A stretch of 64,000 bases of DNA from assembly GCA_947085655.1 (NCBI GenBank), contig CAMTXH010000019.1:3827-67826 (forward strand), in the 5' to 3' direction. Shown one piece after another: positions 3,514 to 57,000 of the stretch. This DNA comes from an uncultured Omnitrophica bacterium (lineage in GTDB: Bacteria; Omnitrophota; Gorgyraeia; JACQQV01). Below the pieces are notes generated by a model. It was not told the origin of the DNA. It was given only the letters and a program-made list of their open reading frames with translations, and did no database searches. How positions within the stretch are numbered: position 1 is the stretch's first letter; each line of letters starts with the position of its first letter. Position numbers and translations under genes: made by a program.

Positions 3514-5589
3514 TTACAGGTACCCCAGTGATTTTAACATCCGCATTTTCTCCGCAGAAACGGTTGGGGAAGTATCGGGTTTCTGCAGGAGATGCGTTTT
3601 CAAATAGAGCGCTGCCCGGTTTCGAAGGGGATGGTTTGCCATTTCATCGCTGTAAAGATTTTGTTTCTCTTTTTTGTCCTTTTGCAAGTCGTACATCTCT
3701 GGAGGACGAAGGGAAGACAAAATGATTTTATACTTCCCTTCCTGGAACGAAAAAGCGGTTTCTTTATAAAGAGCCAAATCAATATCAGGGTGTTTTTGGT
3801 GAAACCGCTCCATCGACCAGTAGGTGCCGGATTGCGCCGCGATAACCCAGGAGGAAGATTTCTCTCCGCCATTCCACAAGGGGACAAGGCTTTCTCCGTC
3901 GATCCCTTCCAAAGGGTGAAGCCCCGCAAGGTCCAAAAGTGTCGGCGCAATATCGGAAAGTTGCGCGGGCGAATGAATTTCCCCCGGAGGGATCACGCCG
4001 GGGTAGCGGATCAAAAGAGGAACATGCAAGGCCTCCTCATAGAGCCCGGTGAGGTGGCTTATCAGACCATGCTCCCCGAAATATTCTCCGTGATCGGAAG
4101 TCACGACAAGAATGCTACGGTTCAAAAGACCGTGTTGGCGGAGGACATCGAGAAACTCTCCCAAGAAAAAGTCAAGATAGGCAATCTCCCCATCGTAAAG
4201 GTCGGAAAGCATCCTGAGTTCCGCTTCATGATCGCTTGGCCCCTCTAGAAAGTACGTCACTCCCTTTTGACTCAACGACAAAAGCGTTTTTTTGGGCCAG
4301 CGCTGGCTCAAAAAAGCCTCGCTCACTCCCGGATGAAATCGATACTCCCGGTGGGCCTCCATATAATTGACGAACAGAAAAAAGGGTTTGCGGGAGAGGC
4401 GGTTTTCATAGACAAGCCACTGTTTTAAACTTGCATTCAGCGAAGGGGCGCTCAGAGAAGAAACGCCCCGAAGCCGCGCTGCGACGCGACTGGCCAAAGA
4501 GCGCTTCTCAAACGCTCCGACCACCACCAGCTGGTCGAATCCGCGATGAAGTCCTGTCCATTCCGCAATGACACCGTTCGCGGTAAAGCCCACCGTCCGG
4601 TACCCCTGACTGCGAAGAGTCTCTGCTAAGGTGGTGTGATGTTCGGACAGATAATATGTCTTTGTATCCGCCCCATGTCGCAACGGGAGAAGTCCCGTAA
4701 AAAGAGAGGCGTGCGACGGCAGTGTCCAATGCGAGGTTGCCTTCGCCTCACGGAAGAGAGCCCCCTCTTCAGACAATCGGTCAAACGTGGGAGAGGTTTT
4801 CTTGAAGTAACCGTAACGGGAGAGCCGGTCGGATCGGACGGTATCCAACACGATAACAATGAGATTCGGCTGCTCAGAAGAAGCCGGAGGGGCGAGACGA
4901 AACGCATACCCCGCGCCACTGAGGCAAAGACAAAACAAAAAAAGGAACCATTGTCTGCTTGGTATTTTTAAAAAGGGCGAAATCCATTTTCGGAGGAAAA
5001 AGATTCCAACGAAACTGAGACATGCAAGAATCCCCAACCCACCGTACAGCACAGGGAAGATGAGTTCTTTCTTCAACCGAGGGTCAGGAAAGGGAGTGCG
5101 AAGGTAGATACTGAGAAACTGGCCCACAAGAAGGAACAGAGAAAAGATCAAAAAGGCGGCGAGGCCATTCTTTCGTATCTCCTCCAAGGGCTTTCTTCGA
5201 AGAAAGGACAAGAAGAGAAACCCCGAAACGGCCAGAAAGAACCCCCAAAGGAGGTTGGGCACTTTCGGCGCTCCCCATAATAGCCGAAGCGCCCCATCTC
5301 CAAAACTGGCCCACTCAAAAAGGGCGATCCCCCCGCTCAAAAGGGCGGCGTAAACAAAAGCGGGCGGGCCTCCTGCCGCTGCGAAAAGAGCACCGGCGGT
5401 CACAGAGACCAAAAGGTAAAGCGGGAGCGCGCGGACGCTCTCCCCCAAAAGAAAATGGGGAAACGGCTCCCCTCGCAACAGATCTCCCCCTCCTCCGATC
5501 AGACAGAAGGCGACTTCCGCCATCCAAAAAAGGAGGGCGAGTGCCGTCCCGGCATAAATCCCTTCAAATAAGATTTCTCTTCTCTTCAT
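3514..5589 (-). CDS. membrane-anchored sulfatase / alkaline-phosphatase-superfamily hydrolase-transferase (LtaS/MdoB-like)
   Basis: Multi-TM N-terminus followed by sulfatase-family motifs (LIVIVLDTVRSDRLSRYGY...SHWTLPSHASLFTG and VVTSDHGEYFGEHGL). The track ORF start at 5655 overlaps tRNA-Val; the ATG at 5587-5589 (MKRREILFEG) is the likely true start. Confidence 0.7.
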   Translation of the reverse strand: MKRREILFEGIYAGTALALLFWMAEVAFCLIGGGGDLLRGEPFPHFLLGESVRALPLYLLVSVTAGALFAAAGGPPAFVYAALLSGGIALFEWASFGDGALRLLWGAPKVPNLLWGFFLAVSGFLFLSFLRRKPLEEIRKNGLAAFLIFSLFLLVGQFLSIYLRTPFPDPRLKKELIFPVLYGGLGILACLSFVGIFFLRKWISPFLKIPSRQWFLFLFCLCLSGAGYAFRLAPPASSEQPNLIVIVLDTVRSDRLSRYGYFKKTSPTFDRLSEEGALFREAKATSHWTLPSHASLFTGLLPLRHGADTKTYYLSEHHTTLAETLRSQGYRTVGFTANGVIAEWTGLHRGFDQLVVVGAFEKRSLASRVAARLRGVSSLSAPSLNASLKQWLVYENRLSRKPFFLFVNYMEAHREYRFHPGVSEAFLSQRWPKKTLLSLSQKGVTYFLEGPSDHEAELRMLSDLYDGEIAYLDFFLGEFLDVLRQHGLLNRSILVVTSDHGEYFGEHGLISHLTGLYEEALHVPLLIRYPGVIPPGEIHSPAQLSDIAPTLLDLAGLHPLEGIDGESLVPLWNGGEKSSSWVIAAQSGTYWSMERFHQKHPDIDLALYKETAFSFQEGKYKIILSSLRPPEMYDLQKDKKEKQNLYSDEMANHPLRNRAALYLKTHLLQKPDTSPTVSAEKMRMLKSLGYL

Positions 5590-20084: not shown

Positions 20085-26527
<6,443 letters not shown>

Positions 26528-27532: not shown

Positions 27533-27561
27533 TTGACAAAAGGGCGTTTTACAGGCATACT
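27533..27561 (+). promoter_or_regulatory. sigma70-like promoter of pyr operon (TTGACA-17-CATACT)
   Basis: TTGACA at 27533-27538, 17-nt spacer, CATACT at 27556-27561. Confidence 0.55.
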
Positions 27562-27585
27562 TGAAAAAATTATGCACCTTTTAAA

Positions 27586-27603
27586 CTAACCCTGTGAGGT
27601 TAG
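27586..27603 (+). promoter_or_regulatory. PyrR-binding loop-like hairpin in pyr leader
   Basis: CUAACCCUGUGAGGUUAG hairpin; its loop AACCCUGUGAGGUU resembles the PyrR binding loop consensus (ARUCCNGNGAGGYU-like). Confidence 0.6.
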
Positions 27604-27642
27604 AAAAGGAGAGAGAAAATGAGTCTAGGTTCAAGAACCAAT

Positions 27643-27672
27643 GCCTACCCATGGGGGGTGGGCTATTTTTTT
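27643..27672 (+). terminator. intrinsic terminator (pyr attenuator)
   Basis: GCCTACCC-ATGGG-GGGTGGGC 8-bp stem followed by TATTTTTTT. Confidence 0.7.
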
Positions 27673-27678
27673 GCCCAA

Positions 27679-27816
27679 CAGGGGACGTTTCCAGAAAGTG
27701 TTCCTAGCGTGGCAACAATTCATGGGACACTTTTGGAAATGTCCCAAAGAAGAAGAGGAAATAAAGATAGGGGACAGATTGGGGCCAGATTAGAGCCAAG
27801 ACTAGAAACGTCCCTG
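27679..27816. repeat. palindromic intergenic repeat element, copy 1 (138 nt)
   Basis: Termini CAGGGGACGTTTCCAG ... CTAGAAACGTCCCTG form a long inverted repeat. The 3' 48 nt are about 94% identical to copy 2 at 42681-42783. Contains an internal hairpin GGGACACTTTTGGAAATGTCCC. Confidence 0.7.
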
Positions 27817-27821
27817 CAGGA

Positions 27822-28379
27822 TTGAACATGCCATTCCGCGAAAAATCAAAGGTCCTGAATCCGGAAGGAATCGAGAAAACGATCAGACGGATCGCCCATG
27901 AAATCATTGAAAAAAACAAGGATTCTCTCGATTCGCTTGCGATTATCGGCATTATGACGCGGGGAGCGACCCTGGCGGAACGGATTCGGAAAGAGATCGA
28001 GAAAATTGAAGGAAAACGTCTTCTGTTGGGGACCATGGACATCACCCTTTACCGGGATGACCTGACTCAGATTGCCCCGAACCCGGTGGTGCACGAGACC
28101 CGCGTTGATTTCGACATCACCGATAAAAAAGTCATTTTGGTGGACGACGTTCTTTTTACCGGCCGGACCGTCCGGTGTGCGTTGGATGAGCTGATCGATT
28201 TCGGGAGACCCCGCGCGGTGCAACTGGCGGTTCTGGTGGACCGGGGCCATCGGGATTTTCCGATCCGGGCCGATTTCGTCGGGAAAAACCTTCCGACCTC
28301 TCTGCAGGAGATCGTCCAGGTCCGATTTCAGGAAACGGACGGGGCGGAGGAAGTGGTGATCGAGGAGGAAAGTCGGTGA
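27822..28379 (+). CDS. pyrR: pyrimidine operon regulator / uracil phosphoribosyltransferase PyrR
   Basis: 185 aa with PRTase motif [18 protein letters not shown]. The ATG at 27828 may be the real start. Confidence 0.9.
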
Positions 28380-34116: not shown

Positions 34117-34267
34117 CCAGTTCAGTAGACGCTTTATGTAACTATCTGTGATTTAATAAATTATGAATAAATTGTAGGAGTGGGAAACGTTATGGAAAGT
34201 GGGAAACATAAGGATTTATTTTTAACTCATAATTTAACAATGAGTTTCGTAAAGCGTCTACTACTAC
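34117..34267. repeat. AT-rich palindromic element abutting carB start
   Basis: Perfect 12-nt inverted repeat GTAGACGCTTTA (34125-34136) / TAAAGCGTCTAC (34250-34261), 113 nt apart. Internal direct repeat GTGGGAAAC x2. The right arm ends 6 nt before the carB ATG. Confidence 0.6.
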
Positions 34268-42680: not shown

Positions 42681-42783
42681 CAGGGACGTTTCTACACTTG
42701 GCCCCGACCTGTCCCTTTTGTTTAAAAACGAAGACAGGGGACACATTGGGGCCAGATTAGGGCCAGAACTAGAAACGTCCCTG
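42681..42783. repeat. palindromic intergenic repeat element, copy 2 (103 nt)
   Basis: CAGGGACGTTTCTAC ... CTAGAAACGTCCCTG terminal inverted repeat. Related to copy 1 at 27679-27816. Starts 5 nt after the hscB stop. Confidence 0.7.
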
Positions 42784-42816
42784 GTGTTAGGGGACGCAAT
42801 AGGTAGATTTTAACTC

Positions 42817-42845
42817 TTGACAGGGATAAGGGGGGATGGTATACT
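42817..42845 (+). promoter_or_regulatory. near-consensus sigma70 promoter TTGACA-17-TATACT upstream of the giant-protein cluster
   Basis: TTGACA at 42817-42822, 17-nt spacer, TATACT at 42840-42845. The track ORF start at 42836 lies inside this promoter, so the real start is downstream. Confidence 0.6.
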
Positions 42846-42925
42846 TTGTTCCATCTCGGAACATGAACATCCCTTTTTTTGTGCAACATAACTTAAGACT
42901 TTTAAAAGAGATAAGGAGGATTAAA

Positions 42926-45900
42926 ATGTCCCGCAAGTTTTTCCTGTTCTTGGCTCTTCCGCTAATTGTCTCGTTAAGTTTCCCCGCTGTTGTTTATTCC
43001 AAGCCAACCACTCATTTAAAGACCCCCTCTGCCAGAGATGGCGGGGTGCACCAGGAACTCGCCTGGATTTTGGGGGCGGACGTTTCTCCTGCCCAGGCCT
43101 CTCAGTTGGCGGCCGGAGCGAAGGAACTGGTCAGTACTGCTTTTGACGAAAACCGTGCCTTTGTCACAGTTGGGGCAAGCGATAAGGAAATCGCAAAGCA
43201 GGTGGATGCCTATGCCAGGGCGTATCATGCGCGGACCGGTCGGCGGTTCAGCGTGGCTGGGACAGAGGTCTTTACCAATTTCGGCAATAATGTGAAAGAG
43301 ATAAGCGGAGAAATCGGAAAACTTGCCAGGAGCTGGCGGGAGCGGGCCGGAAAAGGGTTTGGCCGGGACAAACGCAACGAGGATGGGACACCCGATTACC
43401 ATGAAGTCAATATTAAAGATGCCCTTGCAGAAAGACTTGCAAGGGCTTCTTCTTTTATTCAGGAAACATTGGCAAGCGGGGAAGGAACCGTCTATGCCAA
43501 TACAGCAAAGCGTCTTTCAGAAGAGACGCGCATTGTTTTAGTCTTGGATGAAGAGGGAATCCCAACGCTTCTTTCCGTCTATGCCAATACAGCAAAGCGT
43601 CTTTCAGAAGAGACGCGCATTGTTTTAGTCTTGGATGAAGAGGGAATCCCAACGCTTCTTTCCAATGGTGTTGAAGGAACACCCGAACATCAGGCGCTCG
43701 TCTCCTATGCAGGACGTCACCGCTATGCCGGATGGAAGGGCGGAGATACCACGACGCCGAACCGTGCTCGTTCGATTTACTTGAGTCTGGTTCAGGTTGA
43801 GGAACTGATGAAGCGGGCCGATAAGGAAACACTGGGGTCTCTCCTTTACCATCACGACAGGGACCTTCAGAACGGAAAGCATGAAGATCCGTCACCGGCT
43901 GCGGCTGAGCGGGTGAACAGCGTCCTTCAGGAGATTTTCACCGCCTATCGTGAAAAATATCTGGCGAAAGTCGAAGCAGAACACAAGACAAAACTCCAAA
44001 GGGTGACCACAACGGTGGTCAGTCTGGATGTTGCGACCTGGCTTGGGGGCGCCACCCGGATTCCGGATGAGGTGGTTGCGTTTGCGGAGAACGAGCTTAA
44101 GAACGAAATGGCTGCTGGGACCATCACCGCCTTTGTCGTGAAAGCAAGGGGAAAGGACCTGGATATTCAGGCAAACCACCAAAAAGGTTCGGAAAGTCCA
44201 ATCATTCAAAAAATCCTCACTGACCTCATGGTTCGGACCCTTGTTCAAGCGGTTTCTCCATCCTCAGAGACAAGGGAGGAAGTGCACCAAACCGCTAGAT
44301 CGTACGTTAGTTACCGACCTGCCGAGATGACCTATACGGAACGGGGGGCAGAACCGATTTTGATTGCGAAGGCGATTGACGCAGGACCCGGCTTCTTCAA
44401 CAAAGCCCTTTGGAATATTTTCTCGCATCCTGATCTCCAGTCAACGACCACGATTGACGCTTTTGCCGCTCCAGGATTCCGCTATGTCCTTTCAAGCGTT
44501 GAAGACCTGAAGGCAGGAAAGAAAAATCCGAGAACCCTTGTCTTCACCACACCCAAAGACCGGGATCTATTGCAGTCCTTTGCTTCAAACCCAGACGCTT
44601 GGGTCATTACCGAGGTCTATACCACTGTCGATACTTTGACCGGCGGGAAGATTCCGACGGACGAACCGATCGCAACCGTGTCGTATCAGGTGGTTGAAAA
44701 TGCCAAGGGAGAAAAGTCGCTCCTTAATCCCAACGCGATTATCCGGATGCAGTCCGGTTCGCCTGCGGTGGGAGAAGCGACCAACGCCATCTTCAGACCG
44801 CAGATTTCAATCGGCGGGCCGAACGGAGAATATAACGTTGCCGTTTTTCCGGTGAGTGACGAAGAGGCGCGCACTGCAGCGTATCAGCCGGGGATGGCGA
44901 GAGTTGCGGCTTACGGCTATCAATCCTCCGAGGAAAAACCAGGGTCTCCGATCTTCGGCAGAATTCCTGAGGACCCGGTTACGAATAAGCAGATTGTCTA
45001 TGACCAGGTTCCAAGAAGTTCTGCGGCAAGACTGGTGCGTGAAAAATCGGCGCTTCTTGCCAAACTCATGAATGACCACGGGGAGTTCGACCCTTACGTG
45101 GTGGCAAGCGTTGCCGAAGCGCGTGCCGAGAAGGCCAAGGAAGCGAACTTAAGCCGCTTTGAAAAATTGCCTGGATTGGCCAAGGAGGATGATGTCATGG
45201 CCGCCTCCCGGAATCCACTCGAAGGACACTTTACCGTCTCACTCATCAAAATCGATACGGGTGGGGATATTGGTCACCAGGGGGTGCCGACGGAATACCG
45301 TGTCGTGACCGAGGCCTCTCTTGCCGCAGCCCGTGAAGCATCAAAAGGCCAACTCTTTTCCGACGCCCACTTTGGCTGGGCCGGAGACGACAATCAGATT
45401 AACATGGTTCACCGGCATGGCGTTGATAACGACACAATTCACAGCTTTGATATTCAGGTCTTCTGGCGGCAGGTTTGGGCAGCCACAGCGGCCGGCCACA
45501 AATGGTACGGCCGCGGCCAGGATTTGGTGGGCGAAGCCATTAAAAAAGGAGATGTCGAAATCCGCGCAGGACTCAATGATGAATTCATCGAAGCGCTCGG
45601 GAAACAACTCTCCGGGGAAAAATCGAAATATTTCGCAAAGGTCAAAGCCGCCTACGAGACCTGGAAGCAGAAAACAGGAGGACAGGAGGTCGGGAAGCCG
45701 TATTCGGGGAATGTCCAGGCGATGGGTCCCGGTCTTTCTGAACTCGTTGTCAAAGCGGGGCAGCAGGTCGGGAAACTCGCGATGGACAAAACCGGCCCCG
45801 GCGCTTTCAACATTCCTTTTTGGTGGGCAGCGAACCAGGCGCTCGAAAGGGGCGTCTACGACGATCTCATCTTTGAGATTTGGGACACCGAAAAACACGA

Positions 45901-47236
45901 AAGAATTTTTGTCAGTCTCAAAGAAGAAAGACCTTTGGCCAGACAACTCCTCGGTGCTGTAAACCGCTTTAACATTAAGCGGATCTGGACTAGAAAGCCC
46001 GGCCATAAATGGGTCCGTTCCAAGCCGAAAGAGTCGATCAGTGATCTGCCGATCGCTTCTCTTTCCACCGAGCGGCTTTCCATCATCTCCGGCGGGGAAT
46101 ATCTTGGGAAGGACGATCCGGTTGCGCTCGCCCATATTGAGTTCATGGACATTGTCTTTGAATTCATGCGGGATCACTTCTACATGAACCAGGGAGATGA
46201 ACGGGGATCGCACTACATGATGCCGCTTGCCGAAGCGCATGAGGATGCGGTGGCGACGCTCCGGAGCCGTGCGGTCCAAACCGCCGAGCGGTATGTCATT
46301 ACGAGTGACGGGAAATATGCCGGCAGAGAGGATGTTTACAAAGAACCGGCCTATGAGACAGCGCGGAGACGTCAGGTGGAATACAACGAACTCATCTGGG
46401 CGGTTCAGGGTTCTGAATGGCCGCCGGTCGGCGTCGGACCTGCACAGATTGAGGCCTCCTATCCTGCTGCACGGCTCATGGAGGAACTTGAAGCGGAGGA
46501 TTCGGAGTACCGGATCGAGCGGACGCTCACCTTGGCGGAAAGTCATGCCGCTTCCAAGTGGGCCGATCTTTTCCCTGCGATCGGCCGTTCCGTGAGCCCG
46601 AAAGTGGCACGGATGGCGGCAGATGGAGGAAATAAAGTCATTTTGATTAACGCTGAGACCTTCATCGAAGGACCGGATGGGCTTTTGGCGATCCAGAAGT
46701 ATTTCAGGGATCTTGGATTCGAGACTCCGGAAGAGGCCTTGAAGAGCCCGGTGAAGATTTACATCAATGTTCCGAAAGACGTCAAACCGAGCGAAGGAAA
46801 CGAGATCGTTGACCGGCTTCTCCGGACGGCCAAGGAGAAAACAGACGGTGCCGTGACACTCACCCGGGATTGGTTTGCGGGTGTTGTCTCGGGTACATCT
46901 GCAGATGATGTGCAAGGGAAAATTTTGAATGTGGAGGCTGGCATCGATGTTGTAATCGGGCCTACCGAATGGGCACATGGCCTCCAAAGAATTACAGGGC
47001 CGACTCTCGTGACGGTTGCTTTGGACCCTTCGCCTGATCAGGAAGCCCGTTCCGGCGCAGCGGCGTTTCTGATGGCGATTGAGGCGCTTGCCAATAATAA
47101 GGTCATCGATGAAGCTCTTGCACAGAAACTCTCTGTTCAGATTGATCAGGGCGCCTTGAGCATCATCGCAAGCCCGGTAAGCCCAAAGATTGAAACGGAT
47201 CTCACGGCCTACCGCGAAGCGATGCGCAAGGTGTAA
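42926..47236 (+). CDS. giant secreted protein A (1436 aa) with embedded fructose-1,6-bisphosphate aldolase/phosphatase-like domain
   Basis: ATG 42926 preceded by AAGGAGGA SD. Signal-peptide-like MSRKFFLFLALPLIVSLSFPAVVYS. Residues encoded at about 45227-46500 carry FBPA/P-family motifs in order (IDTGGDIGHQG, WAGDDNQINMVHRHG, GRGQDL, SGNVQAMGPG, DKTGPGAFNIP, GEYLGKDDP, ERGSHYMMP). Confidence 0.8.
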   Translation: MSRKFFLFLALPLIVSLSFPAVVYSKPTTHLKTPSARDGGVHQELAWILGADVSPAQASQLAAGAKELVSTAFDENRAFVTVGASDKEIAKQVDAYARAYHARTGRRFSVAGTEVFTNFGNNVKEISGEIGKLARSWRERAGKGFGRDKRNEDGTPDYHEVNIKDALAERLARASSFIQETLASGEGTVYANTAKRLSEETRIVLVLDEEGIPTLLSVYANTAKRLSEETRIVLVLDEEGIPTLLSNGVEGTPEHQALVSYAGRHRYAGWKGGDTTTPNRARSIYLSLVQVEELMKRADKETLGSLLYHHDRDLQNGKHEDPSPAAAERVNSVLQEIFTAYREKYLAKVEAEHKTKLQRVTTTVVSLDVATWLGGATRIPDEVVAFAENELKNEMAAGTITAFVVKARGKDLDIQANHQKGSESPIIQKILTDLMVRTLVQAVSPSSETREEVHQTARSYVSYRPAEMTYTERGAEPILIAKAIDAGPGFFNKALWNIFSHPDLQSTTTIDAFAAPGFRYVLSSVEDLKAGKKNPRTLVFTTPKDRDLLQSFASNPDAWVITEVYTTVDTLTGGKIPTDEPIATVSYQVVENAKGEKSLLNPNAIIRMQSGSPAVGEATNAIFRPQISIGGPNGEYNVAVFPVSDEEARTAAYQPGMARVAAYGYQSSEEKPGSPIFGRIPEDPVTNKQIVYDQVPRSSAARLVREKSALLAKLMNDHGEFDPYVVASVAEARAEKAKEANLSRFEKLPGLAKEDDVMAASRNPLEGHFTVSLIKIDTGGDIGHQGVPTEYRVVTEASLAAAREASKGQLFSDAHFGWAGDDNQINMVHRHGVDNDTIHSFDIQVFWRQVWAATAAGHKWYGRGQDLVGEAIKKGDVEIRAGLNDEFIEALGKQLSGEKSKYFAKVKAAYETWKQKTGGQEVGKPYSGNVQAMGPGLSELVVKAGQQVGKLAMDKTGPGAFNIPFWWAANQALERGVYDDLIFEIWDTEKHERIFVSLKEERPLARQLLGAVNRFNIKRIWTRKPGHKWVRSKPKESISDLPIASLSTERLSIISGGEYLGKDDPVALAHIEFMDIVFEFMRDHFYMNQGDERGSHYMMPLAEAHEDAVATLRSRAVQTAERYVITSDGKYAGREDVYKEPAYETARRRQVEYNELIWAVQGSEWPPVGVGPAQIEASYPAARLMEELEAEDSEYRIERTLTLAESHAASKWADLFPAIGRSVSPKVARMAADGGNKVILINAETFIEGPDGLLAIQKYFRDLGFETPEEALKSPVKIYINVPKDVKPSEGNEIVDRLLRTAKEKTDGAVTLTRDWFAGVVSGTSADDVQGKILNVEAGIDVVIGPTEWAHGLQRITGPTLVTVALDPSPDQEARSGAAAFLMAIEALANNKVIDEALAQKLSVQIDQGALSIIASPVSPKIETDLTAYREAMRKV
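43490..43663 (+). repeat. perfect 87-bp tandem duplication inside giant gene A
   Basis: Two identical 87-nt units (43490-43576 and 43577-43663) encoding VYANTAKRLSEETRIVLVLDEEGIPTLLS twice. Confidence 0.85.
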
Positions 47237-48210
47237 TGATTACGCAATACAGCACGCAGTACACCTCCATGGTGATCAAGATGAGGGGACGGTTTCCCTG
47301 GCCTGCCGACCAGGGCAGGCTAAACCGTCCCCTCGTTTCTTTAGTGGTTTCCCTTCCTTTAATAGGGACTCTTGTCTTCCCCCCTTCTATCTATGCCGAT
47401 ATCCCCGCTCAATTACGGGCGCCGATGACCTCCAGAGATGAAGGCGTAGCCCAAGCCATTGCAAGAGACCTCTCACTCCTTTCAGGAAATCGGGCGGTAC
47501 AGGATGGCGGCAACCGGACGGAGCAGGAGGGTGACTTAGCGTCGGAGGCACTGGATGCCGAAACCCTTGGGAAGATGGTGATACGTGCCATTCCGGAGGT
47601 TGTCCCGCCGTTATCATCCGACATTCTTCAAACAACATTCCAGGGAACGATTGCCGTCTACGAAGAATCGCTCGACAACCTCACCATTGCCACCATGGTG
47701 GAGCGGTTTGCGCGTCAATTAAACAGTGCACGCTCTAAAATCGGATTCGTTCTGGTTTCCACATCAGGGAAATCCGAATCTGAGATTGCCGCGAAAGTCT
47801 ATCGGGATTCGAAGGGTTTGGTCAATCTGAGCGGTACTTTCCGGGCAACACTTGTGGAGGGCGAAGTCAACGCATTGAATCCTTTGTCGGTTGTGGCGGC
47901 ATTGGAAGAAAAAAGACTCCCGCCTCTTGTGGAACTCGTCGCACCTTTGGAAATCGTGGTCGCTTACCGAAGACCTGGCATCGAACTGTATGGATGGCTC
48001 GTATCCCGTAACCCGCAGGAAGGGGAGGCGGGCATTGCGAACGGCGCACCGGCCCTTCGGGAACTGGTCGAGCTTTTGGGGTTGGGGGAGAAGGAACGGG
48101 CGAGTCTCCTTCGGGATGGAGGCCGATCGTTCATGGTTAACATTCAGCGCTATGAAGAAGATTTCGAAGCGTTCGATTTCTCCTATCGTGAAGGCCGCAA
48201 AAGCGATTAG
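47236..48210 (+). CDS. signal-peptide protein B (324 aa) consisting of the module shared with the C-terminus of giant C
   Basis: TAATG overlap with the A stop. Hydrophobic segment LVSLVVSLPLIGTLVF. Residues from about 95 to the end align with the last 230 aa of ORF C (for example FDFSYREGRKSD versus LDRSYRENRGL). Confidence 0.75.
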   Translation: MITQYSTQYTSMVIKMRGRFPWPADQGRLNRPLVSLVVSLPLIGTLVFPPSIYADIPAQLRAPMTSRDEGVAQAIARDLSLLSGNRAVQDGGNRTEQEGDLASEALDAETLGKMVIRAIPEVVPPLSSDILQTTFQGTIAVYEESLDNLTIATMVERFARQLNSARSKIGFVLVSTSGKSESEIAAKVYRDSKGLVNLSGTFRATLVEGEVNALNPLSVVAALEEKRLPPLVELVAPLEIVVAYRRPGIELYGWLVSRNPQEGEAGIANGAPALRELVELLGLGEKERASLLRDGGRSFMVNIQRYEEDFEAFDFSYREGRKSD

Positions 48211-48688
48211 CAGACGAATAAGTTGAAGCAAAAGTTAGATTTTGTCCCTTGACAATCAAGGGATTAAATGATATCCTTAATGTAAAGAAATTGAAATTTT
48301 TGTGTATACATCTTGTTTATTTGTAAAAGGTTGTAACTTAACTGGAAATAGCATCTTTCAAAATTTGGTCTTTCTTTACTCAAGGTTTGTTCACTAGATA
48401 AACGCAAACCATTCGTGAGGATGGGACTGCAAAGCCTTGGACCCTGCACTAATTTTCGGGGAAAATTAGTGCTGGCAGCCGGGTTGCCTAAAGGAACAGC
48501 GGCCCGGTTTTTTTATTCCCTCGGCCTGAATGGCCTCGGGATCAATTTAGTCAGCAGACTTACGTTCGCTTTGCTCCGTAAGTCTGGACTTCATTGTTCG
48601 GCGTGGGGGCTCCGGCTTCCTTCTTCCCAAGGCAAGAGGCGGAGCAATTACAGGAGCCCTCACGAACCGATCCGGAGGTGAAGAAAAG
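48211..48688 (+). promoter_or_regulatory. long structured 5' leader/intergenic region upstream of giant gene C
   Basis: AT-rich at 48280-48400. Hairpin TCCCTTG-ACAAT-CAAGGGA (48245-48263) overlapping a TTGACA-17-TATCCT promoter-like pair. Perfect 10-bp stem CAGACTTACG/CGTAAGTCTG (48554-48585). Stem plus T7 run at about 48475-48512 (terminator-like). Confidence 0.45.
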
Positions 48689-51600
48689 ATGAAGAAATCC
48701 GGTTTTTGGTTCAAACTTACTGCCTGTCTTATTCTTCAGATTTTTCTGTTCTTCACAGTCAGTCCCATCCCTGCCTCTGCCTTACCCACGCCAACCCAAT
48801 CCCATTTAAGGTCCATTTCAACCAGAAGCTCCGATGGAGGGGTTCGACTTCTTCAACAGGAACTTTTGCGGCCGGCGGGTGTTCCAGCGCCAGACGCTCT
48901 GCAGCCCATTGACGTTTACATCGCTGCAACTTTCGATCACGCCACAGGGCCAACCTCTTTCGAGGGGCGTGTCCGTCGTTTGGTTTCGGCGGTGGCTCAA
49001 GGTGAGTACGAAGGAGTTGATCCGCAAACGCTCGTTCCTCTTTTTCTGAAGGAGTTAACACCGGATCAAGCGGATCTTCATGAATCGATCGGGGGAGAAT
49101 GGGAGCGTCTAAACGGCACTTGTCAGACGTGCGGTGTGAATTCCTTTTATGAGTTACCTTCGACGGGCAGGGTGTCTTCCCAAGACCTCCGCAGAGTTCC
49201 GAGGGAAGTTTTGGGAAGTCTTGTTGCGGCTGTTCATATCGCCCAATCCGGGCGTCTTTCCTTCCACCCCCGAACAAACGAAATCCTCTATTCCGCTTTT
49301 GATCTTGGTTTGGTCTACGGGATGTCTGTTCACCAACTTCCAAAAGCAGAAAAAGCGTTACGAAGTTTGGTTCCAAATGCAGAGCGGGGACTGATTGTCC
49401 ATCTTGCCGCTCTTGATCCGGAGGGTCGGGGGGGTCATTTCGCGGCGGTTAAAACAATCGGGGAAAACGAAGTCATTGTCTTGGATAAAGGGAGAGAAAT
49501 CACCCTCCCGCTTCCGGAATTTCTCAGGCAATGGTCCGGGTATTTCCTCACTTATTCTCAAACCTCCTCAGCGAAGGTTGTCCCGCAGGAAGAGGCAAAG
49601 GAAGTCATGGGATGCTGCGGGACCTACGGCGAGATTATCTCTAAGGGGGCATACCATCAGCAGCCGGATGTGGATATTGCGCAGTTAAGCAGCATTGCGG
49701 CGCTTATCGAGCAGCACGGCCTTCAGGCACTTGTGAAAAACAATCAGGAAAGACTCTTTTTTGCGGGAGAGGAGGATGTCCAAATTGACGCTGTGGGGCG
49801 GTCGGGAAGTATTTCCTTCATTGAATATACCGGAAGGGATGAAGAACCTGTCCAACGTCATCCCCACACCCTGAATGCCGACGAAATCAAAAAGGTTAAA
49901 GGTTATGTCCACCTTCGTGAGAAAGCAGCCGCTCAACTCGAGGAAGTGCATCGGCTGAACGAACAAGTCGAGAAAGCGAAGTCAAAATATGGAAAGGGCA
50001 AAGACAGCAATCAGTCCTGGGAGGAGTGGCGGAAAAACCGCCATCACGGTTGGAAGGAGTGGCAGAGAGGGGCCGGGGAAGCAAAAGAGGCCAAAAAGAA
50101 ATACCAGCAATATCGGAATGATTATTTGGAGGAGAGGGAAAAGGTATTGGGTCAATTTATCGCGAACATTTACCCTGGGCAGCGGACCCGGTTTCAAAAT
50201 TATCTTCTGGAGTCGTATTTAGGCGGCCGAGAACAAATACAGAAATTTTTCAGCCAATTTTACCATTTGAAGCGTATTGTAAATCTTGAATTCATCTTCA
50301 ACAATCCGTCCGTTCGCGCGGAAATCCGCTCTTTGGCGGACCGGCTCCGTGTCTTGATCGCGGAAGAAGAGAGGTTATACAAGAAGTTTGTCGAGGACGG
50401 GTTATTACACCAACAGGATCTGGAGGCTTACAAAGGACGGATGGCACTCCTCAAAGATATGGAATGGTTCCTCACTGAAGATGTCCTCCGGCACATCGAT
50501 GAGATCATGAGTTTGGGGGGCATCGAAGAACGTGATTTACCGGTCTCTTCGCACGCGTTTCAGGCCCTTCGTGCAGTGAATACGGCCCTTGTGGCGATTG
50601 ACAAGCGACTTGAAACACGGGGGCGGGATTCGCTGGGCGTTGCCATTTCTCTTAGCGTGCCTGATGTGAAAACTTACCATCGGCTGAGAGACGCCCTTCA
50701 TAATAACGGATTTCGGTCAGAGTATGAGAGACGGCGGGAACGGGGAACAATGAATTTGGACAATCTCGCAATCCGCATGCAACACAGCCATAAGCCCAAT
50801 GGGGACATCGATGCAGACAGACCAGTCACCATCACTTTTGTTTACAAGGTAGCCGAAGCGGTGGGGAAACTGGGGGACAATGCAAGGGCAATCCGGAAGT
50901 CTATTACCGAGGATGAAGTGTTTAAGCGGGTGATCCGGGCAGATCTTGAAAACATTGTGGTCACGGCCCAATCCCGTTGGGCCTCTGCCGGAGGAATCAA
51001 CATTCCGAATGCCCATCCTGTGGACAACCGGGGGATTTATCTCATCGATGGCAGACAAAGAGAACAGATATGGGAACTTTCGGCAGATCAAATCCCAAAG
51101 TATGGTAGAAATGGAACCCTTTTTGTGGTTCTAAACGGCGATATTGATAATTATAACAGCGAGCGGGAAGGAAAACCGAATCTCACAAAGGTCTATGAGG
51201 AAGACCAGCTCAATACCGTACCCCGTCATATTCATCCGGAGGCCAGTTCAGACACCAAAAGGATTCCGCTTCGGATCGAACATTATTTGGCGCGCGGCCA
51301 TGACCTGAAAGAAGCATTCCGCCTTGCGGTGAACGATTTCGGCGGCTCTTTTGCGATCCAGATGCAGAGTGACCTGGAGCCGGGAAAAATTTTTCTTGCG
51401 CAGCACGGAGAAGGGCAAGCGCTTTATGTCGGAATTTCGGAAGATGGGTTTCATTCCTCTTCCGAACAATACGGGTTTGTTGAGTCGACTCAGCGTTACG
51501 TCGAGATGCAGGCAGGGCAAATCATCATTTTGGACCAGGCAAGGAAACCGGGTGTTGAGCAAATCGAGGCGTATGACTTTGATGGAACGCCGATTAAATT

Positions 51601-54076
51601 TACCGATGCCAATCTTCAAACCACCTCTGTGACAAGCCGCGATATCAATATCCGCGGTTACAACCATTTCCTTGAGAAAGAAATCCACGAGGCCCCCCAG
51701 ATGTGGGAGGATACCATCAGCGGGAAGACGGGCATCGATGTGGATCAAAGCGGAGTTAAAACGCCGTGGGTATCCCTCTCCCCCTTTGACGAATTACCGG
51801 TGAGAATTCTTCAAAGACTCGCGGACCAAGAAAATCCTACCCGAAAAATCTATGTCACCGGTATGGGAACGGCGGATGCGGCAGGTTCGGTGGTAGCAGG
51901 GCAGATCCGGGATTATTTGAGACTCGTCGGTCACGATGAAATCGAGGTGGAAGATATTATTGCGACCGAGTTAAGCGGATTCAAGTTACGGGAAAACATG
52001 AGCGACGTATTGATCGTGGCAGTCAGTCAATCCGGAAAGACGACGGATACCAATACGGCGATCAGTCATGCCAAAAAGAGAGGGGCCGGGGTTCTTGCGA
52101 TTGTGAATACACGCGATTCGAAATTGACGACTTTTGCGGATGGGGTCCTTTATACCGGGACAGGCCGTGACATCGAAATCGCAGTGGCTTCCACCAAGGC
52201 CTATTATGCACAGGTCGGCGCAGGGGCCCTTTACGCGATGGCACTTGCCGAGGGTCTTCTCCAAATGGACAGAGAACGGATTCGGGAGATGCCGGGTAGC
52301 CGCGAACGGACGGCCCAGTGGAACGAACTGGCCAAACGAGAGAAGGAGTTACAGAGGGTGATGTTGGAGGACATCAAAGAAATGCATTTGATGCCGGCAA
52401 AGATAACAACTTTTCTAAACGCCGTTCAAACTCTGGAAGAGGCATACCAAAAGGCGAAAAGAAAAGGTGCAACAGGAGTCCGACGCCATCCTCTTGTGGC
52501 AGCTGCCCATAACTGGCCGCTTCGGAAACTGGAGTGGAAAGTTTTGGGAAGCGGGCCGAATTATCATTCTGCAAAAGAGGGACGGATCAAACTCTCCGAG
52601 TTAACGTACAGCAGCCTGCCGTTTGACCACGTCGAGAATTACAAGCATATTGATTTTTCCGCAGAACCATGGGTGATCGCAAACATTGCGAATGTCTCGG
52701 GGTGGGAGAATACCTTCCATTCCGACATCGAATCCGAAGTCACCAAGATGCTTTCGCACAATGCGGCCTTAACGCTTATTGTTGCGGAGGACGATGCCCG
52801 TTTTAACTCTCTTGAGCAGGAATTCCTGACGGTGGAAGGAAAAAGGGAAAAAGGCCCCATTGATATCATCCGTATTCCCAAAACCAGCGAACGCTTTGCA
52901 CCTGTCCTTTCGACATTGGCGATGCATCTTTTGGCTTATCATGTAGCGCTTGCCCTGAACGAAAGAGCGAATGCGGTAATGAAAGTTCATGACGAGATTT
53001 TATATCAGACAGCGAGACTGAGAAACCATTACGGAAAGAAACAGGCCTCGAGTGATAACATCAGCGGTCTTATTTTGAAAAACAAGACTTTCCGGAAAGT
53101 GGCCAGAGAAAGAATCGGCGAACTCTTCCCGCAATTTAGAGAGGGTATCTTCAACAAAGGATTCGGCTCGGATCGGACCTTTTCGACGATGATTTTGTTG
53201 ATGGCCGCCGCTGGACATATTTCACTGGAACAGACAAACCAATTTTTGGGGAAGGATTATACGCCCGACACGTTTCTGGAAGCGCTTCCGGACTTTTTGA
53301 TGCACCAGCGGATGCGTCTTACCCGGACGGTGGATTCGGTTCTTCACCAGGCGAAGTTCGTGACTGTTGGAACCAAGCGCCAGACGGGATCGGAGTCAGC
53401 GGCGGCTGGGAGAGACGGCGGCGTGAGGCAGACCGCAGCAGTACTGGAAAGCGCAATCCAAGGTCTTTCGCCAGAAGTTTCTCTGTCCCAGTCGGTCCTT
53501 CAGTCCACCGTTCAAGGGACCGTTATAGTTTATGACGATGCGCTGGATAATTTGTCTATTGCCAAAAAGGTTGAACAACTTGCAAGCCAATTGAGGAATG
53601 CCGGCTCATCCATAGGATTCAGTCTGATTTCCCGTTCGGGGAAGGGGGCTGCGGGGATTGCCGAAGAGGTCTATCGGCATTCCAACGGCCTGGTTGACCT
53701 CTGGGGTCTGTTTCAAACATCTCTCGCCGAGGGTGAGGTCAATGTGCTTGACCCCAGGGCAGTGGATACGGCGCTGCGGCAGAGAGGGCTGGTGCCTCTT
53801 GAGCTCGTTGCCCCGCGGGAGATCGTTGATCTTTACAAAGAAAACAAAATCCAACTCTATGCCTGGCTGGTCTCCGGGAATCCAAAAGAGGGTGAGCCGG
53901 GCGTAGTTTACGGTGCAGAAGCCCTTCACCAAATGGTTGAGATCTTTGGATGGAACCCTGCCGACACCGAAATCCTTCTGGTTGAAGGCGGTCTGGAATT
54001 TACAGCGACGTTAGAGCGCTTTGAAGGGGACATCGAAGCCCTGGACCGCTCCTATCGTGAAAATCGCGGGTTATAA
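48689..54076 (+). CDS. giant secreted protein C (1795 aa) with embedded GlmS-like amidotransferase+2xSIS unit and C-terminal B-like module
   Basis: GGAGGTG SD. Signal-peptide-like MKKSGFWFKLTACLILQIFLFFTVSPIPASA. The region encoded at about 50560-53000 parallels glucosamine-6-P synthase end to end (RGRDSLGVAI, QSRWASAGG..NAHP, VVLNGDIDNY, YVTGMGTADAAG, VSQSGKTTDT, AVASTKAYYAQ, LLAYHVALAL), but the position of the N-terminal catalytic Cys is internal and occupied by non-Cys residues. Confidence 0.8.
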   Translation: MKKSGFWFKLTACLILQIFLFFTVSPIPASALPTPTQSHLRSISTRSSDGGVRLLQQELLRPAGVPAPDALQPIDVYIAATFDHATGPTSFEGRVRRLVSAVAQGEYEGVDPQTLVPLFLKELTPDQADLHESIGGEWERLNGTCQTCGVNSFYELPSTGRVSSQDLRRVPREVLGSLVAAVHIAQSGRLSFHPRTNEILYSAFDLGLVYGMSVHQLPKAEKALRSLVPNAERGLIVHLAALDPEGRGGHFAAVKTIGENEVIVLDKGREITLPLPEFLRQWSGYFLTYSQTSSAKVVPQEEAKEVMGCCGTYGEIISKGAYHQQPDVDIAQLSSIAALIEQHGLQALVKNNQERLFFAGEEDVQIDAVGRSGSISFIEYTGRDEEPVQRHPHTLNADEIKKVKGYVHLREKAAAQLEEVHRLNEQVEKAKSKYGKGKDSNQSWEEWRKNRHHGWKEWQRGAGEAKEAKKKYQQYRNDYLEEREKVLGQFIANIYPGQRTRFQNYLLESYLGGREQIQKFFSQFYHLKRIVNLEFIFNNPSVRAEIRSLADRLRVLIAEEERLYKKFVEDGLLHQQDLEAYKGRMALLKDMEWFLTEDVLRHIDEIMSLGGIEERDLPVSSHAFQALRAVNTALVAIDKRLETRGRDSLGVAISLSVPDVKTYHRLRDALHNNGFRSEYERRRERGTMNLDNLAIRMQHSHKPNGDIDADRPVTITFVYKVAEAVGKLGDNARAIRKSITEDEVFKRVIRADLENIVVTAQSRWASAGGINIPNAHPVDNRGIYLIDGRQREQIWELSADQIPKYGRNGTLFVVLNGDIDNYNSEREGKPNLTKVYEEDQLNTVPRHIHPEASSDTKRIPLRIEHYLARGHDLKEAFRLAVNDFGGSFAIQMQSDLEPGKIFLAQHGEGQALYVGISEDGFHSSSEQYGFVESTQRYVEMQAGQIIILDQARKPGVEQIEAYDFDGTPIKFTDANLQTTSVTSRDINIRGYNHFLEKEIHEAPQMWEDTISGKTGIDVDQSGVKTPWVSLSPFDELPVRILQRLADQENPTRKIYVTGMGTADAAGSVVAGQIRDYLRLVGHDEIEVEDIIATELSGFKLRENMSDVLIVAVSQSGKTTDTNTAISHAKKRGAGVLAIVNTRDSKLTTFADGVLYTGTGRDIEIAVASTKAYYAQVGAGALYAMALAEGLLQMDRERIREMPGSRERTAQWNELAKREKELQRVMLEDIKEMHLMPAKITTFLNAVQTLEEAYQKAKRKGATGVRRHPLVAAAHNWPLRKLEWKVLGSGPNYHSAKEGRIKLSELTYSSLPFDHVENYKHIDFSAEPWVIANIANVSGWENTFHSDIESEVTKMLSHNAALTLIVAEDDARFNSLEQEFLTVEGKREKGPIDIIRIPKTSERFAPVLSTLAMHLLAYHVALALNERANAVMKVHDEILYQTARLRNHYGKKQASSDNISGLILKNKTFRKVARERIGELFPQFREGIFNKGFGSDRTFSTMILLMAAAGHISLEQTNQFLGKDYTPDTFLEALPDFLMHQRMRLTRTVDSVLHQAKFVTVGTKRQTGSESAAAGRDGGVRQTAAVLESAIQGLSPEVSLSQSVLQSTVQGTVIVYDDALDNLSIAKKVEQLASQLRNAGSSIGFSLISRSGKGAAGIAEEVYRHSNGLVDLWGLFQTSLAEGEVNVLDPRAVDTALRQRGLVPLELVAPREIVDLYKENKIQLYAWLVSGNPKEGEPGVVYGAEALHQMVEIFGWNPADTEILLVEGGLEFTATLERFEGDIEALDRSYRENRGL

Positions 54077-57000
54077 TGTTGATGAAAAAGAAAAGATGGC
54101 TTAGTTTTTCTGCCTGGGTGACTTTCGAGCTCTTCTTTTTTACCCAGATTGTTTCGGCAGGGAACATTGTTGTGCCCTCTCCGCGCCATTCCCACCTCCG
54201 CGCCCCGAGTTTGAAAGGGACTGCCCAGGACGGGAGCCGTCGTGATGTCGGCGTTAGTCAATTTCTTACGGAGCTCCGGGGTGTCAAAGACGGCGGCACA
54301 CAAAATCTTGAGAGTTTTCCGTCTCTTTTACGAGATTATCTGAAGAGCGTAGCGGGCGTGATCGAGGGTCCCGACTGGTTAAGACAGACGCATGCCCTCT
54401 TTACCTCTGTCTATCCCCGGACTTTTCTTGCGGACTTGGAAAAGATGAGACAGGTGCCGGAACCCACCGGCGGCACCGTGTATTCGCGGCTTGATACACC
54501 CCTTTATTACGACGCAGAGCGCGGATTTGTCGTCCTGGTGGCATCCTGGGAGCCGGGTCAATCCACCCATATCCATAATCACCTCACCGAAAATGAAGAG
54601 CCGGAGGAAGGGATCATCGGTGTGCTTGAGGGCGAGGCAGAGGTGGTCCATTTTAGACGGGAGGGGAACCGGATTATTGAAGCGGGCCGGTTCATTTTGA
54701 AGGAAGGGCAGGCCGCGATTGTGCGTCAGGAAGCGGGGCAAATCCATCGGGTCAGGAATGCAGGAAACACCCGCCTTGTCATGCTCGATACCTACCGTCC
54801 CCGGCTTACCCGGACCGATGTCTTCCTGCCGCTTGAGGATCATTCGGAAACCTCCCTTTTGGGAGGGAAAAAGCGTGAAGCGTATGTCGTCGAGCCGGTC
54901 CGAATTCCTGCAGGGAAACAGAATCTTTTACTTCCGAAACTTTTGGTTGAGGCGGGCTTCGCTGTTCCGCAGATTGATGAGTTTCTGCGCAGCCCGATCA
55001 CCGTCAAAGCAACCTTGCAGGCCTTAAATGAAGCGAAGGCGCTGATTGCGGGGAGGGATGGAGGGGATAAACGGCAGCCGGCCAAGGAATCCACCGTCGA
55101 AATCGCAGGGGCGACATTTTTGCATCTTTCGGCCGAAAGACCGGTTGAGACGGTGCTGATTCCGGAGCCGATTGATCCGGCGGTCATCCGCCTGATTCAG
55201 GAAAGGGACGATGTCTCTGCCTTTATCCTGACTCCCGGGTCTGAAGAGGTTCGGACCCCCGAGGGATGGAAGGTTTTCTCGCAAGACCAGCTCTTAGAGA
55301 CCGTGCGCCAAACCAATCCTACCGCAATCATCGGCTATACCAATCTTCTCTATAATGCCCAATTGATGGATCTGGCCCCCCGCTTGGAAGGGATTTATCT
55401 TTTCTCGACGGGCCGTGAAAATGTGAGCCATCTGGAAGCGCGCCGGCGCGGAATCTTCGCCACGTTTGTCCCGGGGCCTTTAACGGAGATGGTGACCGAG
55501 CGGAATCACACATTTGGCCTGAATTTTGTCTTTGATTATTTAGGGAGCGTTCTCTATCAATCCCGTCCCGGTTGGATGACGGCCGAGGAGGTTTTGTCTT
55601 CTACGGTCAAAGAGAATCCGGAATCGGTTGCGCAGTGGATATGGGGGGAGCTTCTGCGAAGAAGTCAGCGGCTTGATCGGCAGGTTGACCATGTGAAACA
55701 AGGAAAATTCAGGCGCACAACCGGGGTCAGTGAAAACGCAACGGTTTATTCCGAACAATTGGCTCACAATCCGGAAATCGGAATAGAGACCACCCTCGGT
55801 CTTATCGGCCTTGGGGAAGTCGGCAAACGTCTTGCCGAGATTGCAAAGGTCTTCGAACTCAAAGAAGTCCGTTACCATGTGCCTCCTAAAGAACGGGATA
55901 AAAAATTAGAAAAAGAGCTTGGGTTGGTTTATGTAACATCTGTCAAGGACATTTTAACATCAAACTATGTGATCCGTGTCCCGGGCGCACCCATCCATTT
56001 AACCTCGGTAACCGATTTTAGGCAGGAGATTGTGGATCCTGAAAGAATATGGACCGATCCGGACAAGGCGCAGAATCTCCTGAAGCAGTCTCTTTTTGGA
56101 AGGAGAGCCCACATTGCAGGTCTGGGGCAGATCGGAAGAGAAACGGCCAGACGAGCCATTGCTCTCGGGATGGATGTGGATGCCATCGAGATTCGACCGG
56201 ATCTTGAGGCGATTGAAGCGCTGAATCAATTCCAGAGTAAGTTTGCCGAGCGCCACGGACGACCTAAAAGGCCAATCCGGTTGGTGAAGGATAAAGAAGC
56301 CTTCTTTAAAGAAGCAAACCCGGGAGACCTCTTCTTTTATCAGTTTAATTATACTCCTGAAGTCCATCATTGGGTCGATGCAGAGGCCCTGGCACTCCTC
56401 GGCGACACGCCGGTCATTCATATGAACACTGCCCGGGGGAAATTGGTGGATACAAAGGTAATGGAGGAATATCTCGATACCCATCCCCATTCAAAGTATG
56501 GAACAGACGTTTTGGAAAATGAGACCGGAGAAACAGAAAAAGGTCTCGCAGAGCGGCCTAATGTCGTGGTCACTCCTCATTCGGCAAGTGCCGATCCCCG
56601 GGTTCGCGCCTATGTTCAGAAAGTGGCGGTCGTTGATAACTTCTTCGCTTTCTTGGATGGGAAGATACCGGCCAACCCGATGCCCGAGGTCCCGGTTCAT
56701 GAAGTGGTGGCCCGGCGGATGTTTCGGGAGGCGGTCAAAAGCGCCGACGCGTATGAGGCGGTCAGGCGGCATGTTGCTTACGATCCTTCTTCCCAGACCC
56801 TCACCGTTCAGGGGCGCCCCTATGATCTCGCCGGTATTCAAAATATCTATGTTGTGGGATACGGCAAGGCCTCGGGGGAGATGGCCGAGGCGCTTACGGA
56901 AATTTTGGGCGAGCGGATTACATCCGGCGTTATCACTGTGGCCGGGCATGAGCAGAAGAAGCGGTTTAACGGGAAGATTAAACCGATTACTGTTTATGCC

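Follow-up and report, generated by a model that had tools for sequence, protein, structure and literature searches.

What is a 138-nt palindromic sequence doing between the attenuator terminator of a pyr operon and pyrR, and does it belong to the regulatory leader or ride in it as a passenger? The first-pass annotation of this locus left three options, namely a miniature mobile element, a REP-like structural repeat or a small structured RNA. The window (the whole 64-kb stretch of DNA analyzed here) is the neighborhood of a replication origin in a Candidatus Omnitrophota genome, the taxon being read from the names of HscB homologues, with the gene order pheS, rplT, infC, thrS and, further on, parB, parA, gidA, yidC, rnpA, dnaA, dnaN, dciA, gyrB, gyrA, a tRNA gene and rsmI, followed by the pyr operon (pyrR, pyrB, pyrC and further genes), an M48 peptidase gene, an hscB-like gene and genes for giant fused enzymes. 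The gyrB gene (20405-24043) codes for 1212 aa including an intein (Intein_splicing domain); relatives have 819-827 aa and no intein.

The leader that holds the sequence in question, hereafter copy 1, is made up of the following features.

27533..27561, plus strand: pyr promoter (TTGACA, 17 nt, CATACT), kept in relatives
27573..27672, plus strand: PyrR-binding loop and intrinsic terminator (attenuator), RF00515, kept in seven orthologues
27619..27825, plus strand: leader ORF of 68 codons, starting 7 nt past AAGGAG
27679..27816, no strand assigned: element copy 1, 138 nt = 46 codons, consisting of a mini-element, an A-rich spacer and an extra right half
27828..28379, plus strand: pyrR, 183 aa, with the ATG at 27828 placed by homology and by the called protein

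The match to RF00515 (27573-27672) scores 45.9 bits, which is under the Rfam cut-off of 54 (local E 4e-5). Its terminator was confirmed at 27643-27672, where it had been annotated, and the attenuator lies upstream of copy 1 and is untouched by it. At the other edge, 1 nt separates the end of copy 1 from the AGGA ribosome-binding site of pyrR (27818-27821) and 11 nt separate it from the ATG; the distance of 6 nt to the pyrR start given earlier is true only of an in-frame TTG at 27822.

A second copy of the element lies 15 kb away in the window, and the parts of the two copies, together with a weaker candidate, are located as follows.

27680..27747, no strand assigned: predicted minimal foldback, complete, within copy 1 (covariance model R1)
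27768..27816, no strand assigned: extra right half of copy 1, AGGGGACAG...CCAGATTAG...CTAGAAACGTCCCTG, the block in common with copy 2
42681..42783, no strand assigned: element copy 2, 103 nt, a single three-stem foldback
47284..47333, no strand assigned: possible diverged third member, weak, of which the 11-bp outer stem GGGGACGGTTT/AAACCGTCCCC alone matches

Both copies carry the termini CAGGG(G)ACGTTTC / GAAACGTCCCTG, which form terminal inverted repeats of 12-14 nt, and the earlier description of a 138-nt element with inverted-repeat ends and an internal hairpin stands. The similarity between the copies was also described correctly: their 5' ends agree (CAGGGGACGTTTC vs CAGGGACGTTTC), and their 3' blocks (27759-27816 and 42726-42783) are 88% identical over 58 nt; blastn aligns 53 nt of them with 90.6% identity (E 1e-13). 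The foldback at 27680..27747 runs from an outer box GGGACGTTTCC and an inner box AGAAAGTGTTCC through a loop to GGGACACTTTT and GGAAATGTCCC, and R1 scores it at 45.8 bits, the sequence itself being a training member of that model. Copy 1 is predicted to fold into a 5' hairpin and a 3' hairpin at -48 kcal/mol (z -4.6 vs shuffles) and copy 2 into a single long three-stem hairpin at -52.6 kcal/mol (z -7.5). Strong hairpins form on either strand, the opposite strands being nearly as foldable (-49.5 and -44 kcal/mol), and folding that shows no strand asymmetry provides no argument for a role at the RNA level.

Neither blastn nor the covariance model found a further clear copy in the 64-kb window, and the 4.4 kb to its left hold none, which gives two clear copies in ~68 kb of the source genome. 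The palindrome at 47284-47333 may be a third, diverged member of the family; its match to R1 is weak (18.6 bits, E ~0.014). It sits at the 5' end of an ORF (47236-48210), where it codes for MRGRFPWPADQGRLNRP ahead of a signal-peptide-like stretch.

With just two clear copies 15 kb apart, the likeness could be put down to chance or to a single event of local duplication, there being no wider family. The terminal 15-mer CTAGAAACGTCCCTG argues against chance, occurring three times in the window at up to two mismatches, each time at an element end, where shuffles give 0.05. Local duplication, which the first-pass annotation had raised, is excluded by the unrelated flanks of the copies, by orthologous sites that are empty (that of copy 2 in two relatives) and by the elements present in other Omnitrophota. 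Taken together, this explanation is scarcely credible.

The empty sites were read from related genomes. Copy 1 is unchanged in two other contigs of the same species, L007 (GCA_964374045.1) and L008. Six Omnitrophota relatives whose PyrR is 74-82% identical (L009, L011, L013, L032, L034 and L036) share the promoter, the PyrR loop and the terminator with the window, and in each pyrR follows 3-70 nt past the T run without the element, in agreement with the earlier claim of an insertion into the pyr leader. When 27679-27816 is removed, the window reads TTTTTTTGCCCAA joined to CAGGATTGAACATG, which resembles TTTTTTTGCCCGGGGATTTCTATG in L034 and GCCCAAGAAG... in L036. These comparisons support the view that copy 1 entered the pyr leader after the source species had split from the sampled relatives.

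Copy 2 starts 4 nt past the stop codon that ends the hscB-like gene, and 34 nt separate it from the -35 box of the next promoter downstream. Its right edge is given by one further feature.

42793..42808, plus strand: conserved block GACGCAATAGGTAGAT, right edge of the copy 2 insertion

In L037 and L039/L040 the copy 2 site is empty, the hscB stop being followed by two bases, the block GACGCAATAGGTAGAT and the next promoter; the window has in this place CCAT, the 103-nt element, GTGTTAGGG and then the block. Since GACGCAATAGGTAGAT comes directly past the hscB stop in the empty-site relatives, it marks the right insertion edge, and copy 2 is, by this comparison of sites, an insertion right after hscB. 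A Candidatus Omnitrophica MAG (L038, GCA_016206785.1), whose HscB is 65% identical, carries at its hscB site a different member of ~60 nt (TAGGGACGTTTTCC...CTCTAATC...CGTCCCCAGGGGACG...GAAAGCGTCCCTA), and the left junction CCAT-YAGGGACGTTT is common to it and the window. A site filled in both L038 and the window implies either an old insertion that was lost twice or one target that was reused. The L038 element gives hscB its stop codon (4514-4516, the TAG of TAGGGACG), and the L018 element, at about 860, likewise gives rpsF its stop codon (a TGA within GGGACGTTTCTGA).

The DNA downstream of copy 2 has features of its own. A leader at 42817-42926, past a TTGACA/TATACT promoter, is conserved in L037, L038 and L039 with the pattern TTTGTTCC...GGAAC...TTTTTTT...GTAACTTAAG; it may serve the giant-protein gene as an attenuator or regulatory leader that has so far gone unrecognized. 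A series of giant proteins of 1466, 1795 and 2059 aa, apparently secreted, extends over 42836-60255; they have N- and C-terminal motifs in common and bear single central-metabolism domains (FBPase_3 and SIS in the window, GAPDH and enoyl-CoA hydratase in L037 4714-8558). The 1466-aa ORF contains a perfect 87-nt tandem duplication (43488-43661, two identical 29-codon copies), which may have arisen recently or may be an artefact of assembly. Upstream of the 1795-aa SIS-domain protein lies a c-di-GMP-I riboswitch (48393-48491), and L038 has a riboswitch at the matching place (4750-4825). A second kind of palindromic insert occurs at 34124-34262, between a gene with an MJ0043_C domain and carB; it is A+T-rich, 139 nt long, with 15-nt inverted ends (AGTAGACGCTTTATG / CGTAAAGCGTCTACT) and a predicted fold of -40 kcal/mol (z -5.1), and it ends 5 nt short of the carB ATG in a gap that measures 2-21 nt in relatives.

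The leader ORF of the window crosses the terminator, passes in frame through the whole of copy 1 and ends in a TGA 2 nt short of the pyrR ATG. Copy 1 contributes 46 stop-free codons to the leader frame, which is the one frame of its six that is open. Dinucleotide shuffles of copy 1 are stop-free 10% of the time, and with divisibility of the length by three counted in, the joint chance falls to ~0.03, for a pattern that was spotted after the fact. Without the element, the leader peptide would be MSLGSRTNAYPWGVGYFFAQQD, which is near to ...AYPWRVGYFFAQEDRNRNDV in L036 and ...MGYFFARGFL in L034.

All seven orthologous leaders have an ATG 5-7 nt past AAGGAG, a motif that forms the 3' strand of the PyrR-binding stem. 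In the orthologues the leader ORF runs over the terminator, and in five of the seven its stop overlaps or abuts the pyrR ATG. The overlap takes the form ATGA in L011, L013 and L034, the stop lies 10 nt inside pyrR in L036, and it falls ahead of the pyrR ATG in L009 (-18) and L032 (-30).

The pyr operon of Thermus is reportedly controlled by translation-coupled PyrR attenuation with a leader peptide, in which leader translation is said to counteract the terminator and PyrR to block the leader's ribosome-binding site. The Omnitrophota leader is laid out alike, with a leader Shine-Dalgarno AAGGAG in the PyrR-binding stem and a leader ORF that passes over the terminator to end at the pyrR start in those five orthologues. 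Judged from this sequence layout, the likeness suggests that the Omnitrophota pyr leader works by translation-coupled PyrR attenuation of the Thermus type. It differs in that copy 1 is an addition to the attenuation system and not a part of it. The in-frame, stop-free course of copy 1 also suggests that only an insertion preserving leader translation up to pyrR was tolerated.

Could copy 1 nonetheless act as an RNA? A functional structure in the pyr leader, for example a stabilizer, a site of RNase III processing or a means of tuning how translation of the leader ORF is coupled to that of pyrR, would be in keeping with co-transcription with pyrR on read-through (judged from position), with the very stable predicted hairpins, with the in-frame, stop-free course of copy 1 through the leader ORF and with its identity in L007 and L008. 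Against such a role, the element is missing from six of the six orthologous leaders, copy 2 adjoins an unrelated gene, both strands fold about equally well and Rfam provides no match. At the gathering threshold Rfam assigned the conserved block and the elements to no known RNA family (window, both copies and ten related loci), and at E up to 10 both copies returned just hairpin-like microRNA noise. We therefore consider a functional RNA improbable, and of the three options first put forward it is the mobile or REP-like repeat that fits, and not a dedicated structured RNA.

More specific roles for copy 1 were also rejected. A second PyrR site was dismissed, as RF00515 has no match within 27679-27816 at E up to 10, and so was an extra terminator, since the hairpins have no T run and no intrinsic terminator was found in or at the end of either copy. 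Promoter-like sites were likewise not found within copies 1 and 2. A coding gene was discarded for want of protein homologues in any reading frame: the concatenated open translations had no match at E up to 10 among 5.8 billion proteins, and the 46-aa leader-frame translation had one match among 1.84 billion representatives, an unrelated tandem-repeat protein. A CRISPR-like array was considered and dropped.

A terminal-repeat-pair pattern was derived from 22 terminal bases and checked on the window, and a metagenome scan with it yielded 18 loci; since these bases recruited the members, their shared ends follow from the search itself. The build of the window copies recurs in L018, L020, L021, L025 (two elements in 12 kb), L026 and L030, and two of the proteins encoded on L026 have identical counterparts in Omnitrophica WOR_2 bacterium RIFCSPLOWO2_12_FULL_51_8. 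The outer stem of the metagenome elements is GGGACGTTTCT/AGAAACGTCCC, the middle stem CCAA/TTGG and the inner stem GTGTCCCC/GGGGACAC. For the family as a whole, the unit can be written as an outer stem YAGGGACGTTTCT / AGAAACGTCCCTR (right arm also given as AGAAACGTCCCTG), a middle stem CCAA / TTGG with right arm CCGATTRG (CCAGATTAG in the window) and an inner stem GTGTCCCC-loop-GGGGACAC. Units are combined in several ways: L-R in copy 2, L021, L026 and L030; L-L-R in L025; and L-R-R, with an extra right half, in copy 1, L018 and L025.

Ten elements were compared for conservation of the foldback. In the three-stem foldback 94.4% of cells are paired, as compared to 87.8% in shuffles and 32-56% in slid controls, and 15 pairs are changed on both sides vs 4.9 in shuffles (0/500 shuffles reach 15). 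By this measure the ten elements preserve the three-stem foldback through compensatory changes. The 8 nt flanking the inner stem gave no significant covariation (permutation p 0.11), and an HMM built from just the interiors of the right halves from the metagenome had no significant hit in the window (best E 2.5, in copy 1; E 28 in copy 2). Over ~110 kb of relatives' DNA, the sole member found with R1 was the L038 element.

Several hits were rejected as members. L015 and L019 are eukaryotic (LINE reverse transcriptase, CCCTAA repeats), and L022, L023 and L027 are Firmicutes-like with a different layout. The pattern GCCANNNNTAGAAACGTCCCTG had six hits in GTDB representative genomes, all chance matches in coding DNA of unrelated phyla. 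The strict pattern GGGGCCAN{4,20}TAGAAACGTCCCTG had no match in metagenome or viral contigs, nor did the terminal-repeat-pair pattern in viral contigs, nor either copy by blastn against plasmids and phages. The decamer GAAACGTCCC was seen between short inverted repeats in L022 (2431-2600), L023 (560-622, 983-1068 and 14602-14698), L027, L029 and L016. In these Firmicutes-like and other contigs the repeats around it vary by family (GTGGCA/TGCCAC, AAGACA/TGTCTT, GTGACAG/CTGTCAC), and in L023 the decamer units flank a 5S rRNA gene. Its presence in several families may be a coincidence forced by the pattern or may reflect a shared recognition site.

Related copies are present in other Omnitrophota, in tight intergenic gaps of housekeeping operons. 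The genes that adjoin the elements, window copies included, have no function in common; among them are pyr genes, hscB, rpsF, genes of cobalamin synthesis and one for an ECF sigma factor. L025 (8249-8400) and L030 (1646-1750) carry related elements in the same divergent intergenic region, upstream of an ECF sigma / anti-sigma factor pair, and the neighboring proteins of the two are 48-57% identical.

Such placements raise the question of whether the GGGAC boxes are mobile DNA at all, or instead operator arrays for an Omnitrophota DNA-binding protein, either nucleoid-associated or a regulator. The GGGAC core is invariant in variable surroundings, units are spaced 23-32 nt apart in direct and inverted order, several elements lie just upstream of promoters, and the same intergenic site is occupied in distant genomes (window/L038; L025/L030 upstream of the ECF sigma factor gene). 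The same-site elements could also mean functional conservation and not mobility. Operator arrays are, however, an unlikely explanation, given the diverse functions of the adjoining genes, the absence of the sites from close relatives and the position of copy 1 downstream of the promoter, within the transcribed leader.

A better supported alternative is a classical MITE, that is, an internally deleted insertion sequence whose terminal inverted repeats are bound by a DDE transposase that duplicates a short target. The inverted repeats of 12-14 nt, the size of 60-140 nt without coding capacity and the ~23-nt GGGAC units repeated within an arm, reminiscent of multiple transposase-binding sites, all fit this description, as do the direct repeats CAGG around copy 1 and TTAG around the L038 element. 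Nonetheless, CAGG overlaps the inverted repeat itself, and no direct repeat in the same register exists at copy 2 or at six metagenome members. The target-site duplication proposed as a check was seen as CAGG at copy 1 but not as a consistent duplication across copies. Lengths and module order vary widely, whereas a recent MITE burst would leave uniform copies, and no parent element was found in the GTDB representatives or in the metagenome, viral, plasmid and phage collections (patterns of up to 600 bases). No transposase gene was found in the 64-kb window. We regard a classical MITE as a possible but tentative identification.

Of the described systems, the Correia/NEMIS MITEs of Neisseria resemble the GGGAC-box elements in their length of 100-150 nt, terminal inverted repeats, gene-adjacent location, co-transcription and long mRNA hairpins, as well as in presence and absence between related genomes, which was also observed at the GGGAC-box sites. 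Correia elements have a fixed TA duplication, a uniform length and known effects via promoters, IHF sites and RNase III; the GGGAC-box members are strongly heterogeneous, and neither a regular duplication nor a parent transposase was seen. Rickettsia palindromic elements (RPEs) also insert as palindromic repeats that keep an ORF open, as copy 1 does with its stop-free codons. They differ in residing in genuine protein-coding genes and in forming a defined Rickettsia sequence family, whereas copy 1 lies in an ORF for a regulatory leader peptide, is the sole such case seen and bears no sequence relation to them.

The closest match in behavior is to the extragenic palindromes of the REP/BIME/REPIN type, with the classical MITE as a close alternative. 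REP/BIME of enterobacteria and REPIN doublets are short imperfect palindromes in extragenic operon gaps, co-transcribed with neighboring genes, and their units are assembled into mosaics of alternating and direct order with short linker motifs, an arrangement also found here. Shared, too, are the lack of a consistent target-site duplication, a conserved core in variable surroundings and a long foldback of two inverted halves as the likely functional unit. REPIN doublets are mobilized by REP-associated Y1 transposases (RAYTs). The resemblance has limits: neither the window nor the fetched loci yielded a RAYT gene, copy number is apparently low in 68 kb, and host phylum and sequence are unrelated to described REPs. 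The GTAG hallmark of REPs is confined to copy 2, at its left arm (minus strand GTAGAAACG); in its place the remaining arms have CTAG, CCAG, TCAG or TTAA.

On balance, we favor, with modest confidence, the reading that copy 1 belongs to a family of palindromic repeats in Candidatus Omnitrophota that is dispersed, non-coding and modular; we call its members GGGAC-box elements. The family would represent an undescribed REP/BIME- or MITE-like non-autonomous repeat, and the REP/BIME-like form is preferred over a classical MITE on account of the heterogeneous mosaics without regular duplications. A repeat of this kind would be expected in many copies per genome; the ~68 kb of the source genome covered here hold two clear ones and a weak candidate. 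A search of the literature on Omnitrophota and palindromic repeats returned nothing relevant.

We propose that GGGAC-box elements would spread by an enzyme acting in trans on the GGGAC-containing hairpin ends, for which a Y1/HUH REP-associated transposase and a DDE transposase are candidates, neither being encoded in the window. Copy 1 would then be a passenger with no regulatory role of its own. It would be transcribed solely on attenuator read-through; translation would then add its 46 codons to the leader ORF, on which the ribosome would normally end at the pyrR start codon. A length divisible by three, the lack of stops in the leader frame and an attenuator and ribosome-binding site left intact would explain why the insertion survived. 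That copy 1 keeps the leader reading frame makes it look like tolerated selfish or repeat DNA rather than a new regulator.

A more far-reaching interpretation is that the GGGAC-box foldbacks constitute a phylum-wide, vertically maintained Omnitrophota system in which a dedicated protein recognizes the invariant GGGAC core, either as a partnership of the REPIN-RAYT type or as a new nucleoid or regulatory system. We consider this doubtful. If true, the decamer GGGACGTTTC, which appears in literature text in primers only, would recur in unrelated-looking repeat families as a shared recognition site, and the in-frame, stop-free insertion would be direct natural evidence that leader translation to the pyrR start is needed for expression.

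The element is otherwise ordinary, probably a passenger rather than a new regulatory mechanism, and the one feature that merits an experiment is its insertion, with the frame preserved, into a PyrR attenuator that is probably coupled to a leader peptide. The family adds a described repeat to the Omnitrophota, a phylum without cultured members for which we found no report on repeat DNA. Such repeats break assemblies and mislead gene callers, and they may act as strain markers. Copy 1 itself amounts to a natural insertion experiment in a pyr leader that is probably a leader-peptide-coupled PyrR attenuator, and as the only tolerated form seen keeps both the frame and the stop position, the coupling hypothesis is testable.
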